Source: Escherichia coli (GTDB lineage: Bacteria; Pseudomonadota; Gammaproteobacteria; Enterobacterales; Enterobacteriaceae). Taken from it: a stretch of 64,000 nucleotides of DNA. The notes below the pieces were generated by a model. That model was not told the origin of the DNA and searched no databases. It was given only the letters and a program-made list of their open reading frames with translations. Below, one piece after another: positions 1 through 43,817 of this stretch. The stretch's first letter is position 1. Each line of letters starts with the position of its first letter. Both the position numbers and the translations under genes were made by a program. The stretch lies in assembly GCF_003334815.1 (NCBI RefSeq), contig NZ_QOWO01000005.1. The stretch is one strand, 5' to 3'.

Positions 1-1810
1 CTGCGGCGTTGTATTCATACCGCGTTTCACGGCCCTGTGCGTCTTTCACCGAGGTTAACCGGCCACGGTTGTCATAGCGGCGGTAAAGGCTGATGCCTTC
101 CTCGCGGTGGACCGCCGTCATCTGGCCGAAGCGGTCGTATTCATAACGGGTCTGGTAGCCCGAGCAGTCGGTGAACGCCAGCAACTGCCCGTAGCGGCTC
201 CAGGTCATCTGCCGGGTGCTGCCCGTCGCATCCGTTGTCGTCGCCGGTAACTCACTGTGCGCGTCATCGTAGCGGTAGCGTACTGTCTCCCCGCTGCGCG
301 ATGTCTCCGATACCAGCCTGCCCGGTTCATCATATTCCCGGCGGCTCTCCAGCCCGTCCGGGGACACCACCGCCGTCAGCTGGTTCCCGTCGTTATAGTA
401 AAATTTCGTCTCCCGCCCGTCCGGTGTGGTGATGTCCGTGATATCGCCGGACACCACATTCAGACCGTACTCTGTCCTCCGTCCCGCCGCGTCCGTCTGC
501 GCCGTGAGCCTTCCTGCCGCGTCATACCCGCTGCGCGTGACGCTGCCGTCCGCCAGTTCTTTTTTCACCACCCGTTTCAGCCCGGCCCCGCCTTCTGTAT
601 GCAGCACCTCACGCCGGTTCAGGCTGTCGGTGACGGTGATGCGGTCCTGCTCATAAAGATAGCGGTAGCTTAACCCTGCCGGGTTCAGTTGCTCCACCAC
701 CCGCCCCGTATCGTCGTAGCGGTAGCGCATCTCCGGCCTTCCCGCGTAACGGTGCGCCACCATCCGGCCCGGGTGCTGCGCGTCATACGTGAAAGCGCGC
801 ACCTGCGTATTGCTGCGGTCATATACCGCCAGCAGTTCACCGGCTTCCGTATACGTGTACCGCACCAGTGGCGCAGCGGGCAGGCTCTCCGGGTATGCCG
901 GGTCGTGCATCAGCCACACCGCCGAAAGGCGGATACCCCTGTCGGGGCCGTATTCGGTACCGGGCAGTGTGTCGGGGAACGCTGAGGCTGAGAGAGGGCG
1001 GGAACTGTCAGAAGAAGATAGCGAAGAGGTGCGGGCCTCTTCCGCACGCTGCGCCTGCGTGGTCAGCACCAGACGGAACTCCCGCCCGGCACCGTCCGTC
1101 ACGCCGGTGATTTCCCCGGCCAGGTCGCCTGCGGCCTCACGCCGGTACGTCAGCGTCCGCCCGAAACGGTCTGCCAGCCCGGTAAGCACCCGGTACGGCG
1201 GCAGCGGCGCTGGCAGTACGTCCTCAGCACCCGGCACCCGCTCTGACCACCCCAGTATCCACCACGGCCCCTGTGCGCTGTTGGTCGCCAGGTAAAGATG
1301 CGGGCTTAACCGGATATCCGGCGGCAGCGCCCCCCACAGCCGCGCCAGCGTATGGCCGTCCGGCTGTGCTGCCTTACCACCGCGCACCAGCCACATTGAC
1401 TCACTGCGGCTGTACACCGCCTCCCCCGGCAGCAGCGGCTCAAAGTGAATGCTCCGCCCGCCGTTGTCGTTGAGTATCAGTCCGTCATCACGTAGCTGTA
1501 AGCGGATATCAGAAGGCGCTTTCCAGCCGGGGCCGAAAACGCCCACCGGTGCAGGCGTCTTCGTCCGGTAGCTGCTGTAGGTGCGGGAGAGAATGAACGG
1601 CAGCGGGCCGGGCAGCGCAAGGTCCGTCTCGCCGGGCAGCACCTTCGCCCCCAGCAGCGGATTTACCGGGTTGCCCGAAGTCATCCCGCCCGGACACACC
1701 GAGCACGCCACGCCGGTGGGCGCGCCAATTCTTACACCTGCCGAACCCTGGACAATGGGACCGCCATACTGAGTCATATCTCCCTGACGCGCCGCTGGTT
1801 TTCCGCTCAT
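1..1810 (-). CDS. rhsD: Rhs element core protein RhsD, N-terminal ~603 codons (partial; CDS runs off window start)
   Basis: Minus-strand translation from ATG (complement of 1808-1810) reads MSGKPAARQGDMTQYGGPIVQGSAGVRIGAPTGVACSVCPGG... with no stop before position 1; absent from ORF track because it is incomplete. Confidence 0.9.
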   Translation of the reverse strand, partial: MSGKPAARQGDMTQYGGPIVQGSAGVRIGAPTGVACSVCPGGMTSGNPVNPLLGAKVLPGETDLALPGPLPFILSRTYSSYRTKTPAPVGVFGPGWKAPSDIRLQLRDDGLILNDNGGRSIHFEPLLPGEAVYSRSESMWLVRGGKAAQPDGHTLARLWGALPPDIRLSPHLYLATNSAQGPWWILGWSERVPGAEDVLPAPLPPYRVLTGLADRFGRTLTYRREAAGDLAGEITGVTDGAGREFRLVLTTQAQRAEEARTSSLSSSDSSRPLSASAFPDTLPGTEYGPDRGIRLSAVWLMHDPAYPESLPAAPLVRYTYTEAGELLAVYDRSNTQVRAFTYDAQHPGRMVAHRYAGRPEMRYRYDDTGRVVEQLNPAGLSYRYLYEQDRITVTDSLNRREVLHTEGGAGLKRVVKKELADGSVTRSGYDAAGRLTAQTDAAGRRTEYGLNVVSGDITDITTPDGRETKFYYNDGNQLTAVVSPDGLESRREYDEPGRLVSETSRSGETVRYRYDDAHSELPATTTDATGSTRQMTWSRYGQLLAFTDCSGYQTRYEYDRFGQMTAVHREEGISLYRRYDNRGRLTSVKDAQGRETRYEYNAA

Positions 1811-7676: not shown

Positions 7677-7702
7677 GCCGGATGCGATGCTGCGCATCCG
7701 GC
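7677..7702. terminator. Hairpin between convergent cnoX and fetB (likely bidirectional terminator)
   Basis: gccggatgcg (7677-7686) pairs with cgcatccggc (7693-7702), 6-nt loop; lies between the two stop codons. Confidence 0.6.
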
Positions 7703-7708
7703 ATCGCA

Positions 7709-8488
7709 TCATTTCTTCTTCAATTGCGTCACCACCAACTGGTGGCGCGAATTATAAAACTTACGATAGGTTAAATAGCAGGCAATAATGGTCGACAAGC
7801 TGGCGGTTGAGAGCAGCATAAAGGTCACCATAATCTGATATTTAATCGCCTTCACCGGATCAATCCCGGCAAATATCAGCCCGGACATCATTCCTGGTAA
7901 ACTCACTAAGCCAACCGTTTTTGCTGAATCGACCGTCGGAATTAAAGCCGCGCGAATACTGTCGCGAATCAATATCGCTGAAGCCTGCTTCGGCGTCGCA
8001 CCAAGACTCAGTTTCTCCTGAATCTGTTGCTGTTCGCTAATGACCCGTTGCCCTAAATTGTTGTAACACAACCCCACCGCTACCATGGCGTTACCGGCAA
8101 TCATCCCGGCGATAGGGATCACCTGCATCGGGATAAATTCAATCGACCCTGAGAGAATCAGCACCGCCAGGGTAATTCCCGCCCCGACCGTAATGGCAAT
8201 AAACGATGAGATAAAAGCTTTAGCAATATATTTACTGCGTTTTTGCGCGTTCCACGCCGCATTAAAGCAGATAAATAACACCATCAATAATGTCAGGCTG
8301 GCATCATCCACGCTGAAAATATACTTCAGCACATAGCCGACAATAATCAGCTGAATTATCGCTCGCCCGACGCTCCAGAGAATATCTTTCTCCAGCGCCA
8401 GTTTTTCTTTATGGCTAATTAAGATTGCCACCACCACCAGCATTAATGCCAGTGCTAATGATTCGTTAGTAATATTATGCGAGTTCAT
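7709..8488 (-). CDS. fetB: Iron export ABC transporter permease (259 aa)
   Basis: Trimmed from ORF 7709..8515 to ATG (complement 8486-8488) MNSHNITNESLALALM...; polytopic membrane protein. Confidence 0.88.
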   Translation of the reverse strand: MNSHNITNESLALALMLVVVAILISHKEKLALEKDILWSVGRAIIQLIIVGYVLKYIFSVDDASLTLLMVLFICFNAAWNAQKRSKYIAKAFISSFIAITVGAGITLAVLILSGSIEFIPMQVIPIAGMIAGNAMVAVGLCYNNLGQRVISEQQQIQEKLSLGATPKQASAILIRDSIRAALIPTVDSAKTVGLVSLPGMMSGLIFAGIDPVKAIKYQIMVTFMLLSTASLSTIIACYLTYRKFYNSRHQLVVTQLKKK

Positions 8489-35172: not shown

Positions 35173-38100
35173 TTACCCTACCGCTGGCGTCGGGTCATCG
35201 CCTTTGTAGTCGCGTTTTACTTCCGTCACCTCATCGCCCTTCTCGTTGTGCAGATGCACTTCAAGCTGGTTAAAGGCAATGTTGATGTCGTTTTCACGGC
35301 ACAGCTGATCGATAGTACGGTTCAGCTCATCGACAGTACGACTACGGTCACGCAGTTCACGCACATACAGACGCAGCTCATGATCCAACGTGCTGGCACC
35401 AAATGCCGTAAAGAAGACTTCCGGCATTGGTTCGTGCATCACCCTTGGGTGCTCAGTCGCCGCCTTCAGTAACACTTTACGCACTTTTTCCAGATCGGAG
35501 CCATAGGCCACGCCGAGACGGATCACCAGACGCGTAGTAGTGTCAGTCAACGACCAGTTGATCAGACGCTCGGTAACAAACGCTTTGTTCGGGATGATCA
35601 CTTCTTTGCGATCGAAATCGGTAATCGTTGTCGCACGAATACGGATCTTACTTACCGTCCCCGAGAAGCTACCAATGGTTACCGTATCGCCAATACGCAC
35701 CGGACGTTCGAATAGAATGATCAAACCGGAGACGAAGTTACCGAAAATTTCTTGTAAACCAAAACCAAGACCTACGGATAATGCTGCGGCCAGCCACTGG
35801 AGTTTATCCCAAGAGACGCCCAGCGATCCGAACACCGTCATCGCACCAACAGCAATAATGATGTAGTTAAGGATGGTAGTAATGGCATACGACGCGCCCT
35901 GGCGCATATTCAGTCGCGAGAGCACCAGCACTTCCAGTAAACCAGGCAGGTTGCGAATCAACGCCCAGGCCACCATTGAGGCGATAATCGCAAACAACAG
36001 ACTGCCCATGGTGACGTTTTTCACCACCGCAGCGCCAGCTTCAGTGCCGTTGTAATGCCAGAGCGTGATGCTGTCGAGATAGCTGAACACGGTGATCAAA
36101 TCGGACCAAATTGCCCAGAACATGACACCGAACAGCGCAAACATCAGCAACATGGTAATACGCAGCGTCTGCTGGTTAACTTGCTCCAGTGCAATGGTGG
36201 GTTCTTCCGGCGGTTCAGCACCTTCTGCGCCCTCTTTCACCAGATTCTGCCGACGCGCCAGCGCACGACGCCAGGCGATACGCCGCGCCGCTACGCTTAA
36301 GCCACGCAGTACCGTCTGGTACAGCAGGTTCCAGATGATCACCAGATAAACGGTTTCAATCCAGCGTCCTGCCAGACGCAGCGTAGTGTAGAAGTAGCCT
36401 GTAGCAGTCAGCACCATCAGCGCAATCGGGATTATCGACAGCACGGTAATGGTGACCAGTCGCATGGTGTGCGACTCTTTATCACGCCAGCTTTCGCGGC
36501 ACATCGGCCATACCAGGAAGGCAATCAGCAGCAGGTTGAAGAAAATCATCGCTTGCCCCAGCACATCATCCATCAGATGCAGCGGGGAAAGTTCTGCCAC
36601 CACAGACCAGAAATGGATAGGCAGCAATGCGAGACTGATGCGGACAATTTGCCGACGCCAGTGGCTGGTCTGCTGTTCCGGCATGCCGAAGTGACGTACG
36701 GCAACGCCGTTTTTCTCCAGTACCTTCCAGCACAGGCCAAACACCAGCCAGAATATCGCCAGTTTTTTGCTGAACGACCATAGCAGTTCGCTGATGTTGA
36801 GCTGCATGGTCAACAGAATCAGGCCAACCGCGAGAATAATCAGGCACACCGGCAGCGCACGGATCAGGTCGATAAGGATCGCTTTTGGTGTGTTGAGCTG
36901 GCTGTCGTTACGCAGGGAACCCACAGCGGAAGCCAGTTTTTGTTGATACGCTTTCAGCCAGCCCAGACGCCAGTGGATCAGCCCGGCAATCAACAGCAGC
37001 GGCAAACCAGCGAGGAAAGCGATAAAAACGGCGGGCCAGGCTTTTTGCCAGTTCACCGTGATTTTCATCGACTTAAATTCATCTTTCAGGCTTTGCGGGA
37101 ACGCTTTGATCCAGTCCCAGTCCATTGGACGGTTACTGTTCACCCAAAAGATTTGCTGAGTCAGGATGGATTTCAGGTTTTTCGACACACTCATTAACTG
37201 CTGCTGGTTGATTTGCAGGTTAATGGCCATCATCAGCTGGTTACCCAACTGTTTGTTGAGTTGATCCAGCAATTCGCGACGCATATCAACCACTTGCAAT
37301 AACGCATCGTGAACTTCGCTGTTGACTTCGTTGGTGTGACCTTCTTCCAGTTTGTTGACGAACGCATCGCTCTGGAAGAGTGCATCACGCTGCTGGTTAA
37401 CTTCAAACTGTTCGAGACGCAAATCCGCGATGCGGTTGGTCATGTTTTCCAGTTCATCCGCCGAGGGCAGCGTTTGTTGTTGCTGGTAAAGGATACGAGA
37501 CAACAGCAGGCTGCCCTTCAGGACGGCAATCTGCTCTTTAATATTGCGTTCCGATTGCAGCGCCCGCTCCAGCCAGTTTTTGACTTTAATGTTTTGCTGC
37601 ATCAACTGATTACCGTTTTCAGTCGCGGTAATCAGACGCTGACTTAACTGCTGGTTAATTTCCAGTTCCTGCTTCACCAGCGGATTAGCCTGAATACGCG
37701 CGGCTTCATCCGGGGAGACGGCTTCCTGCGCCGTTTTTTCGGTTAAAGTCAGGCGCTTGCTGTTTACCGCTTCTTGCAACAGTTGTAACTGGTGCTCCAG
37801 ACGAGCGCTGTTCGCCGTCACGTAATCACGTTGCTTTTGCAAGGTATCCTGCAAGACGGTGTTCCCTTCCAGGCTTTTACGCTGCTGGTCAATCTCCGCA
37901 TTCAGCAACGCCTGCTGGGCCTGCATTAACACTTTCTGGCTGGGACGTAAGGCTGTCTCGCCGACATCAGTCCCATCCAGACGACTGCGAATTTGTTGCA
38001 GCTGCTGCGAAGCGTTATACATCGCATTTTGCACGCGTTCGGGCTGCGTCTGTAACGAAACCAGCTGGCTGTTATAAGACGCCAGATCGTTTTGTGCGTT

Positions 38101-38535
38101 TTGCAAATCGTCCAGCGCCTGGGCAACGCGAGTTTCCAGCTGGCGCAACGACAGCGTGCTCAGAATTTTGCGCGTTTCTTCGTCGTTATCGACATCGCTA
38201 AGTGCTGTTAACGCCGCGGTCGCCTGGCGCATTTTTTCCGGCGCTTCAGCGACTTTTTGCCGTAGCTGAACTGTCTCTTCTTTTATGCGATCGATTTTAT
38301 CGAGGGTGGCTAATGTATCTGTCAGATCCTGCTGCACCAGTTTGTCCTGAGCAGAAAGATCTTTTTGTTTATTTAGTGAGTCAAGTTGCGCCTGCAGGTC
38401 CGCTTTTGTCGGCAGATCACCATTCGATGACGCTCGCGCAAACGCCGTGTTCTGGCATAACAAGACAAAAACAAAAGCAATAAATGCTGAAAAAACAAAA
38501 TGCCGTGATCGTTTGTAATACTGGAACATAGTCAT
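35173..38535 (-). CDS. mscK: Potassium-dependent mechanosensitive channel MscK (1120 aa)
   Basis: ORF track 1120 aa; long coiled-coil periplasmic N-terminus, C-terminal MscS-like domain. Confidence 0.95.
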   Translation of the reverse strand: MTMFQYYKRSRHFVFSAFIAFVFVLLCQNTAFARASSNGDLPTKADLQAQLDSLNKQKDLSAQDKLVQQDLTDTLATLDKIDRIKEETVQLRQKVAEAPEKMRQATAALTALSDVDNDEETRKILSTLSLRQLETRVAQALDDLQNAQNDLASYNSQLVSLQTQPERVQNAMYNASQQLQQIRSRLDGTDVGETALRPSQKVLMQAQQALLNAEIDQQRKSLEGNTVLQDTLQKQRDYVTANSARLEHQLQLLQEAVNSKRLTLTEKTAQEAVSPDEAARIQANPLVKQELEINQQLSQRLITATENGNQLMQQNIKVKNWLERALQSERNIKEQIAVLKGSLLLSRILYQQQQTLPSADELENMTNRIADLRLEQFEVNQQRDALFQSDAFVNKLEEGHTNEVNSEVHDALLQVVDMRRELLDQLNKQLGNQLMMAINLQINQQQLMSVSKNLKSILTQQIFWVNSNRPMDWDWIKAFPQSLKDEFKSMKITVNWQKAWPAVFIAFLAGLPLLLIAGLIHWRLGWLKAYQQKLASAVGSLRNDSQLNTPKAILIDLIRALPVCLIILAVGLILLTMQLNISELLWSFSKKLAIFWLVFGLCWKVLEKNGVAVRHFGMPEQQTSHWRRQIVRISLALLPIHFWSVVAELSPLHLMDDVLGQAMIFFNLLLIAFLVWPMCRESWRDKESHTMRLVTITVLSIIPIALMVLTATGYFYTTLRLAGRWIETVYLVIIWNLLYQTVLRGLSVAARRIAWRRALARRQNLVKEGAEGAEPPEEPTIALEQVNQQTLRITMLLMFALFGVMFWAIWSDLITVFSYLDSITLWHYNGTEAGAAVVKNVTMGSLLFAIIASMVAWALIRNLPGLLEVLVLSRLNMRQGASYAITTILNYIIIAVGAMTVFGSLGVSWDKLQWLAAALSVGLGFGLQEIFGNFVSGLIILFERPVRIGDTVTIGSFSGTVSKIRIRATTITDFDRKEVIIPNKAFVTERLINWSLTDTTTRLVIRLGVAYGSDLEKVRKVLLKAATEHPRVMHEPMPEVFFTAFGASTLDHELRLYVRELRDRSRTVDELNRTIDQLCRENDINIAFNQLEVHLHNEKGDEVTEVKRDYKGDDPTPAVG

Positions 38536-38662: not shown

Positions 38663-39310
38663 TTATTCGTTAGTGGCAGGATTACGAAGCGTGGGGCACA
38701 GGAGATACATCTCCAGTAAGATGGCAACGTAATCGCGGGCTTCTTTTTTAAGATCAAAAGATTGCGGGGCAAAGAGCCAGTTTTCCATCAGGCCGGAAAT
38801 ATAGCCGCGCATAATAATTGCTGCGCGACGCGTCATTAAATCCGCAGGCAACATTTTCGCTTCAATACAATGTTTTAACGTTTGTTCTATACGGTCATAA
38901 CTTTCCAGACAGAGATTACGTTGTGCCTGTTGCACAACAGCCATTTCTCCGACAAATTCGCATTTGTGGAATATAATCTCCATCAATAATCGACGCCGTT
39001 CTTCTGTCACCGTGGATTCAAGAACATGAATTAATATCTCTCTTAATACTGAGAGTGGATCGCCAGGGAATTTTGCCTGATACTCAAGCTCTAGTTCACC
39101 AATATTGGATTCTGACAGTTCCCAGATCTCACTGAACAAATCCGACTTGTCTTTAAAATGCCAGTAGATTGCACCGCGCGTAACGCCAGCTGCTTTTGCA
39201 ATCTCGCCCAGCGAGGTGGATGATACCCCCTGCTGTGAGAAAAGACGTAGAGCCACATCGAGGATGTGTTGGCGCGTTTCTTGCGCTTCTTGTTTGGTTT
39301 TTCGTGCCAT
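38663..39310 (-). CDS. acrR: TetR-family repressor of acrAB (215 aa)
   Basis: ORF track 215 aa [52 protein letters not shown]... Confidence 0.96.
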
Positions 39311-39338
39311 ATGTTCGTGAATTTACAGGCGTTAGATT

Positions 39339-39362
39339 TACATACATTTGTGAATGTATGTA
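39339..39362. promoter_or_regulatory. AcrR operator: 24-bp palindrome in acrR-acrA divergent control region
   Basis: tacatacatt-tgtg-aatgtatgta; 10-bp arms are exact reverse complements. Confidence 0.8.
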
Positions 39363-39451
39363 CCATAGCACGACGATAATATAAACGCAGCAATGGGTTT
39401 ATTAACTTTTGACCATTGACCAATTTGAAATCGGACACTCGAGGTTTACAT

Positions 39452-40645
39452 ATGAACAAAAACAGAGGGTTTACGCCTCTGGCGGTCGTTCTGATGCTCT
39501 CAGGCAGCTTAGCCCTAACAGGATGTGACGACAAACAGGCCCAACAAGGTGGCCAGCAGATGCCCGCCGTTGGCGTAGTAACAGTCAAAACTGAACCTCT
39601 GCAGATCACAACCGAGCTTCCGGGTCGCACCAGTGCCTACCGGATCGCAGAAGTTCGTCCTCAAGTTAGCGGGATTATCCTGAAGCGTAATTTCAAAGAA
39701 GGTAGCGACATCGAAGCAGGTGTCTCTCTCTATCAGATTGATCCTGCGACCTATCAGGCGACATACGACAGTGCGAAAGGTGATCTGGCGAAAGCCCAGG
39801 CTGCAGCCAATATCGCGCAATTGACGGTGAATCGTTATCAGAAACTGCTCGGTACTCAGTACATCAGTAAGCAAGAGTACGATCAGGCTCTGGCTGATGC
39901 GCAACAGGCGAATGCTGCGGTAACTGCGGCGAAAGCTGCCGTTGAAACTGCGCGGATCAATCTGGCTTACACCAAAGTCACCTCTCCGATTAGCGGTCGC
40001 ATTGGTAAGTCGAACGTGACGGAAGGCGCATTGGTACAGAACGGTCAGGCGACTGCGCTGGCAACCGTGCAGCAACTTGATCCGATCTACGTTGATGTGA
40101 CCCAGTCCAGCAACGACTTCCTGCGCCTGAAACAGGAACTGGCGAATGGCACGCTGAAACAAGAGAACGGCAAAGCCAAAGTGTCACTGATCACCAGTGA
40201 CGGCATTAAGTTCCCGCAGGACGGTACGCTGGAATTCTCTGACGTTACCGTTGATCAGACCACTGGGTCTATCACCCTACGCGCTATCTTCCCGAACCCG
40301 GATCACACTCTGCTGCCGGGTATGTTCGTGCGCGCACGTCTGGAAGAAGGGCTTAATCCAAACGCTATTTTAGTCCCGCAACAGGGCGTAACCCGTACGC
40401 CGCGTGGCGATGCCACCGTACTGGTAGTTGGCGCGGATGACAAAGTGGAAACCCGTCCGATCGTTGCAAGCCAGGCTATTGGCGATAAGTGGCTGGTGAC
40501 AGAAGGTCTGAAAGCAGGCGATCGCGTAGTAATAAGTGGGCTGCAGAAAGTGCGTCCTGGTGTCCAGGTAAAAGCACAAGAAGTTACCGCTGATAATAAC
40601 CAGCAAGCCGCAAGCGGTGCTCAGCCTGAACAGTCCAAGTCTTAA
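39452..40645 (+). CDS. acrA: Multidrug efflux periplasmic adaptor lipoprotein (397 aa)
   Basis: Trimmed from TTG-start ORF 39416..40645 to ATG 39452 MNKNRGFTPLAVVLMLSGSLALTGC (lipobox). Confidence 0.95.
   Translation: MNKNRGFTPLAVVLMLSGSLALTGCDDKQAQQGGQQMPAVGVVTVKTEPLQITTELPGRTSAYRIAEVRPQVSGIILKRNFKEGSDIEAGVSLYQIDPATYQATYDSAKGDLAKAQAAANIAQLTVNRYQKLLGTQYISKQEYDQALADAQQANAAVTAAKAAVETARINLAYTKVTSPISGRIGKSNVTEGALVQNGQATALATVQQLDPIYVDVTQSSNDFLRLKQELANGTLKQENGKAKVSLITSDGIKFPQDGTLEFSDVTVDQTTGSITLRAIFPNPDHTLLPGMFVRARLEEGLNPNAILVPQQGVTRTPRGDATVLVVGADDKVETRPIVASQAIGDKWLVTEGLKAGDRVVISGLQKVRPGVQVKAQEVTADNNQQAASGAQPEQSKS

Positions 40646-40664: not shown

Positions 40665-43817
<3,153 letters not shown>

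Follow-up and report, generated by a model that had tools for sequence, protein, structure and literature searches.

A conserved 24-bp palindrome in the divergent acrR-acrAB control region of Escherichia coli as the likely operator of AcrR

A 64,000-nucleotide stretch of Escherichia coli DNA (the window, from whose first base all positions are numbered) was examined around the genes for AcrAB-TolC, the principal multidrug efflux pump of E. coli and related bacteria. The gene acrR (38663-39310, minus strand) encodes a TetR-family repressor of 215 aa, which falls within the NCBIfam equivalog NF007949 (419 bits, cut-off 271; alignment 1-214 of 216). On the plus strand, acrA (39452-40645) encodes the periplasmic adaptor of 397 aa (NF011604, 885 bits against a cut-off of 765, aligned over positions 1-397 of 397) and is followed by acrB (40668-43817, plus strand), whose 1049-aa product is the RND permease (NF011706, 2422 bits, cut-off 2150). 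An MscK open reading frame occupies 35173-38535 on the minus strand. The best PDB match of the AcrR product was 2qop/3bcg, annotated as E. coli AcrR (1-215/1-215, E 1.6e-141), with 3lhq as a further full-length match of that name. The same product scored 179 bits against the acrEF/envCD regulator model and 28 bits against the TetR model.

The start codons of acrR and acrA are separated by a divergent spacer of 141 bp (39311-39451), the distance and orientation reported for acrR upstream of acrAB (PMC9769551). An earlier note on this DNA had placed the starts of acrR and acrA at 39310 and 39452, respectively, and both positions are borne out by the end-to-end NCBIfam alignments and by the RefSeq annotation, in which the two starts are identical in E. 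coli BW25113 and strain Z1323CEC0008. The longest acrA open reading frame opens at a TTG codon at 39416 (409 aa), 36 nt upstream of the ATG at 39452; this TTG was ruled out as the acrA start by the model alignment and the RefSeq annotation, and a naive ORF caller would absorb part of the acrA leader and the ribosome-binding site (39416-39451). The region is highly conserved within the species: positions 39227-39526 are 100% identical to E. coli K-12 BW25113 481001-481300 (reverse strand), the 141-bp spacer was matched in 5424 of 5426 complete E. coli genomes, with at least 99% identity in 5420 of those 5424, and genomes sampled across the match ranking were 100% identical. Comparison of 39200-39560 with PLSDB returned 11 plasmid-labelled records with the locus, all of them non-mobilizable and several of 1.2-4.9 Mb, and based on these properties we read the records as mislabelled chromosomes or chromosome fragments and rejected a plasmid-borne acrRAB copy.

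Direct reading of the spacer identifies a 24-bp palindrome, TACATACATT-TGTG-AATGTATGTA, at 39339-39362, consisting of a left arm (39339-39348), a TGTG spacer of 4 nt (39349-39352) and a right arm (39353-39362). A repeat finder returned the same element, with arms of 10 nt that are 100% complementary and lie 4 nt apart, so that the perfect 10-bp arms described in the earlier note are confirmed by two routes. Each arm measures exactly 10 nt because the bases just outside (39338 T and 39363 C) and just inside (39349 T and 39352 G) do not pair. The interval 39311-39451, to which the palindrome had been assigned, is the whole acrR-acrA spacer; the operator itself is confined to 39339-39362. The 24-mer has a single match in the 64-kb window, even with up to three mismatches tolerated, and no match was found in 100 shuffles. 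A first-order Markov model gives an expectation of 0.7 per 64 kb for perfect inverted repeats whose 10-nt arms are 0-10 nt apart, corresponding to ~0.0015 in one 141-bp spacer; 15 overlapping repeats of this type, in about nine places, were observed in the window. The eight other places with perfect inverted repeats of at least 10 nt and a short spacer (7677-7710, 18474-18497, 21602-21628, 28043-28072, 30032-30055, 37606-37635, 49087-49112 and 60703-60727) are probably terminators or other operators, and one of them (37606-37635) falls within the mscK coding region.

The earlier note had proposed a comparison with the published AcrR footprint, and the palindrome agrees with the published AcrR site at every base: the AcrR-binding 24-mer of the acrAB promoter, TACATACATTTGTGAATGTATGTA, aligns with 39339-39362 at 0 mismatches. 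This sequence is credited to Su et al. 2007 and is quoted as two 10-bp inverted repeats with a 4-bp spacer (PMC9769551, PMC10597343); the quoting papers cite Su, Rutherford and Yu 2007 (BBRC 361:85) and Li et al. 2007 as its source. The acrAB promoter fragment has also served as the positive control in AcrR electrophoretic mobility shift assays (EMSA), in which it was shifted by purified AcrR (PMC9769551, PMC10597343). The window thus shares with the published E. coli site the same 24 bases, the 10-4-10 layout, the 141-bp divergent spacer and the organism, with no difference between them, and the palindrome lies between the true acrR and acrAB genes. No report of an AcrR footprint elsewhere in the spacer was found in the accessible literature, which excluded the primary binding and structure papers (Su 2007, Li 2007). 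Taken together, the identity with the published site, the presence of an AcrR equivalog next door and the conservation in 79 species described below support the assignment to a TetR-family AcrR operator made in the earlier note, and we consider it very likely that the local AcrR uses the palindrome at 39339-39362 as its operator in the acrR-acrAB divergent control region. The element is already known from E. coli K-12 as the binding site of AcrR; it dates from a 2007 publication and is in routine use as a search motif. The present analysis adds a conserved core from 79 species, the mapping of two published drug-selected single-nucleotide variants (SNVs) to the right arm and the -10 region, and the observation that the mismatch level of proposed secondary targets equals the chance frequency. 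Since loss of AcrR repression is a frequent route to higher drug resistance, the operator is medically relevant.

One genome per species was scanned with the AcrR protein, which yielded 80 loci ranging from Escherichia to Serratia, Erwinia, Pantoea and Rouxiella, the last four including AcrR identities down to 60%. One locus was dropped because its upstream region was missing, and the remaining 79 were kept. In all 79 species the best operator match lies 27-29 nt upstream of the acrR ATG (28 nt in the window) and the left arm TACATACATT is unchanged, while the right arm carries at most one change per species. In Kosakonia, Trabulsiella and Phytobacter the change is A>T at the base equivalent to 39358; the other substitutions affect the innermost base, 39353, which is G in Salmonella and T in some Serratia. 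Orthologous operators of Salmonella, Klebsiella, Enterobacter, Serratia, Erwinia and Pantoea match the window both in the left arm and in their distance from the acrR ATG. Among the 79 species the 4-nt centre of the palindrome takes several forms (TGTG, TATG, CGCG, TGCG, CATG and TTTG), with CGCG found in Serratia operators and TGCG in those of Erwinia. The spacer is also polymorphic within E. coli, being TGTG in the window, as in K-12, and TATG in the GTDB representative of the species, the latter form being shared with many other genera.

Majority-base frequencies, computed on an alignment of the window and the 79 loci, were 1.00 for the left arm, 0.98 (97.8%) for the right arm and 0.83 for the TGTG spacer, and outside the palindrome 0.79 for 39311-39338, 0.93 for 39363-39400 and 0.89 for 39401-39451. 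The whole acrR-acrA spacer is well conserved (0.79-0.93 per segment), and therefore the arms stand only moderately above their background. Because the central 4 nt and the innermost base of the right arm vary, the conserved core, as judged from this alignment, is TACATACAT-N6-ATGTATGTA. Invariant arms, a free centre and single changes that are uncompensated are what would be predicted for two protein half-sites and not for an RNA stem.

A consensus scan of 39200-39560 identified only one promoter-like site on the plus strand, with a predicted -35 hexamer TTTACA (39337-39342) and a predicted -10 hexamer TACCAT (39361-39366) at a spacing of 18 nt. The last 4 nt of the former fall within the left arm and the first 2 nt of the latter within the right arm. 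In the alignment of the window with the 79 loci, the columns of the predicted -35 are conserved at 95% or more and the predicted -10 is also conserved. Mapped transcription starts of acrA and acrR were sought in the accessible literature and none were found, a Salmonella CsrA paper giving a 'predicted TSS' only. The claim of the earlier note that the operator overlaps divergent promoters accordingly holds in part: for acrA it stands at the level of prediction, backed by the consensus scan, by conservation and by a selected -10-up SNV, whereas for acrR, repression through this site would follow from the geometry and from the reported control of AcrR over its own expression. The predicted acrA 5' leader further contains, in a strongly conserved part, an imperfect inverted repeat, ATAAACGCA/TGGGTTTAT, at 39381-39402, whose 9-nt arms are 89% complementary and lie 4 nt apart. 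CsrA has been reported to act through the acrA leader structure in Salmonella, and the repeat may belong to the leader structure it uses.

The arrangement suggests a mode of repression. Each 10-bp arm would be contacted as a half-site by the helix-turn-helix of a single AcrR subunit; in addition, two AcrR dimers on opposite faces of the 24-bp site have been proposed as a model in the citing literature. With the predicted hexamers, the operator would reach from within the -35 as far as the second base of the -10 of the acrAB promoter. Because the predicted -35 and -10 bracket the palindrome, bound AcrR would block RNA polymerase from the acrAB promoter, with promoter occlusion as the probable mode of repression. 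Binding of a ligand at the C-terminal domain of AcrR would then release the DNA, and acrAB would be de-repressed.

Variants selected by drugs fall within this layout. According to a supplementary table, gyrase-inhibitor selection of E. coli BW25113 gave two substitutions of the same base, 481170 A>G (reaching 99% of one population) and A>T, together with 481163 G>T, and the authors of that study noted that the variants overlap the known AcrR site. We mapped these SNVs onto the window using the BW25113 annotation (acrA start 481075, acrR start 481217) and the exact sequence identity of the two regions. Position 481170 corresponds to 39357, the fifth base of the right arm, and a change there is consistent with loss of the operator; this base also lies within the promoter spacer, so that a direct effect on promoter strength is conceivable. 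The change 481163 G>T corresponds to 39364 C>A, converting TACCAT to TACAAT, which is nearer the consensus. It is consistent with a -10-up mutation and backs the assignment of the -10.

AcrR is reported to control its own expression (PMC9769551), and the same operator would also provide negative autoregulation of acrR, although the mode of action has to be deduced from the geometry. A weak candidate acrR promoter, recognised by consensus match only, occupies 39376-39405 on the minus strand, with TTAATA at 39405-39400, a spacing of 16 or 18 nt, and TATATT or TATTAT ending at 39378 or 39376, respectively. Should acrR be transcribed from this candidate, the operator would fall at ~+8 to +31 of its transcript. 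More generally, a distance of only 28 nt between the operator and the acrR ATG means that an acrR promoter anywhere in the spacer either overlaps the operator or transcribes through it. With an acrR transcription start in 39311-39338, the operator would coincide with the promoter region from -10 to -35; a start inside the operator would overlap it, and one above it would transcribe through it. A single site can thus act on transcription in both directions, in line with the reported autoregulation.

A marbox/soxbox, ATGGCACGAAAAACCAAACA (MarA, SoxS, Rob, RamA), lies at 39291-39310 on the minus strand and coincides with nt 1-20 of the acrR coding sequence (codons 1-7). The consensus AYNGCACNNWNNRYYAAAYN was matched exactly only once in the window (39292-39310, minus strand), against 0.08 expected. 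The box ends 26 bp upstream of the predicted -35 and is in the backwards orientation relative to acrA. A MarA/SoxS/Rob box upstream of the acrA -35, for which the earlier note had recommended a search, is thus present upstream of the predicted hexamer, although it is situated inside acrR and not in the spacer. In Salmonella, deletion analysis by RamA EMSA located this 20-mer at -161..-142 relative to the acrA ATG, which corresponds to 39291-39310 of the window, and in E. coli the first 20-21 nt of acrR (the marbox) are required for full MarA/SoxS/Rob-dependent activation of acrAB. A marbox within the spacer, ATAGCACGACGATAATATAAAC (39365 onward), was considered and rejected, as it shares only the GCAC half of the consensus and the sole exact match is in acrR.

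Two well-characterised TetR-family systems provide points of comparison. The IR1 site of QacR (Staphylococcus aureus qacA) resembles the AcrR site in being a long palindrome (28 bp versus 24 bp) that overlaps the promoter of a multidrug efflux gene. QacR binds it as two dimers, a pair-of-dimers mode that has also been proposed for AcrR, while the IR1 sequence is unrelated to the AcrR operator. The qacR gene is likewise divergent but is not known to be autoregulated through IR1. TetR/tetO of Tn10 is, as is acrR-acrAB, a divergent repressor and efflux pair with palindromic operators in the shared spacer, in which a ligand releases the repressor; it differs in having two separate 15-bp operators, each bound by one dimer, where acrAB has a single 24-bp site. 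These features of QacR IR1 and TetR/tetO are established background.

Among other accounts of the palindrome, one that is compatible with all the observations is that it is also used by further regulators, namely the AcrS/EnvR paralogue or, in some species, OmpR acting as an anti-repressor. We regard such shared use as possible but somewhat doubtful. It draws on the score of AcrR against the acrEF/envCD regulator model, which indicates a close paralogue with a similar DNA-binding domain, and acrAB is reportedly repressed by AcrS/EnvR, a finding said to go back to Hirakawa et al. in 2008. OmpR has been reported to overlap the AcrR site in Yersinia. The sequence does not, however, demand a second binder, and shared use would supplement the AcrR reading without replacing it. 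The acrS gene itself lies outside the window.

The palindrome might instead, or in addition, act as an RNA hairpin in the acrR leader that affects stability or translation, which we consider highly improbable. A leader beginning at an acrR start at or above 39372 would fold the palindrome into a 10-bp stem, with a second helix pairing 39365-39373 with the start-codon region, and the predicted fold of the acrR leader has an energy of -18.1 kcal/mol (z = -3.2). Any perfect DNA palindrome folds as RNA, however, and the z-score of the leader is therefore uninformative; moreover, the hairpin could form only with an acrR start above 39362. The invariant arms give no covariation, and the changes seen in the right arm (A>T, A>G) are uncompensated in the left. 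The stem is A+T-rich, no terminator-like T-run follows the palindrome on either strand and the terminator scan did not flag it, while a search of Rfam with the locus gave no relevant match at E <= 1. The third alternative is that the palindrome arose by chance in an AT-rich promoter region and has no function of its own; as its arms overlap the -35 and -10 hexamers at their ends, promoter conservation may explain part of the pattern. This reading is effectively refuted by the low expectation per 141 bp and by the arms being conserved over their full length, including the ~17 nt that separate the hexamers and in which promoters tolerate change, in contrast to the variable 4-nt centre. It is also at odds with the identity to a published binding site and with a selected arm mutation.

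With the palindrome taken as the AcrR operator, related sequences were assessed at the same locus and in published targets. A second AcrR site at 39306 (10 mismatches) was rejected, since sites with 10 or 11 mismatches are common in the window (32 and 124 24-mers, respectively, in 64 kb on both strands) and the stretch is the least conserved of the spacer (0.79). This rejected site corresponds to a direct repeat, 39308-39325 being 78% identical to 39341-39358. Predicted AcrR sites in puuA, mdtUJI, flhDC, soxRS and marRAB carry 9-11 mismatches to the operator (PMC9769551, PMC10597343), which is about the chance level, and these published predictions of secondary sites therefore rest on EMSA and not on the sequence match.

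In E. coli Z1323CEC0008, isolated from chicken in South Korea, an IS481-family element of ~1.1 kb is inserted immediately upstream of the acrA -35. The insertion is flanked by a 5-6 bp target duplication, TTAGA or TTAGAT, corresponding to 39333-39338 of the window (1400-1405 and 2501-2506 of that strain's locus, L081). The operator and core promoter are intact in this strain and are cut off by the element from the marbox and acrR, and the annotated transposase open reading frame extends through the operator.

Two inverted 9-mers are situated on either side of the operator, ATGGCACGA at 39302-39310 (minus strand), which takes in the GCAC end of the marbox together with the acrR start codon, and ATAGCACGA at 39365-39373 (plus strand), which sits at the predicted acrA transcription start. 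Both follow the pattern ATRGCACGA and are near-invariant across species, and thus offer no covariation in favour of pairing. The operator might be nested in a larger symmetric element, in which the 9-mers of an acrR leader starting at or above 39373 would pair and hide the acrR AUG around an inner hairpin made by the operator palindrome; alternatively, 39365-39373 might be a second half-marbox at the acrA start site. We think this very unlikely. If true, pairing of the inverted 9-mers would add a post-transcriptional layer to the control of acrR.
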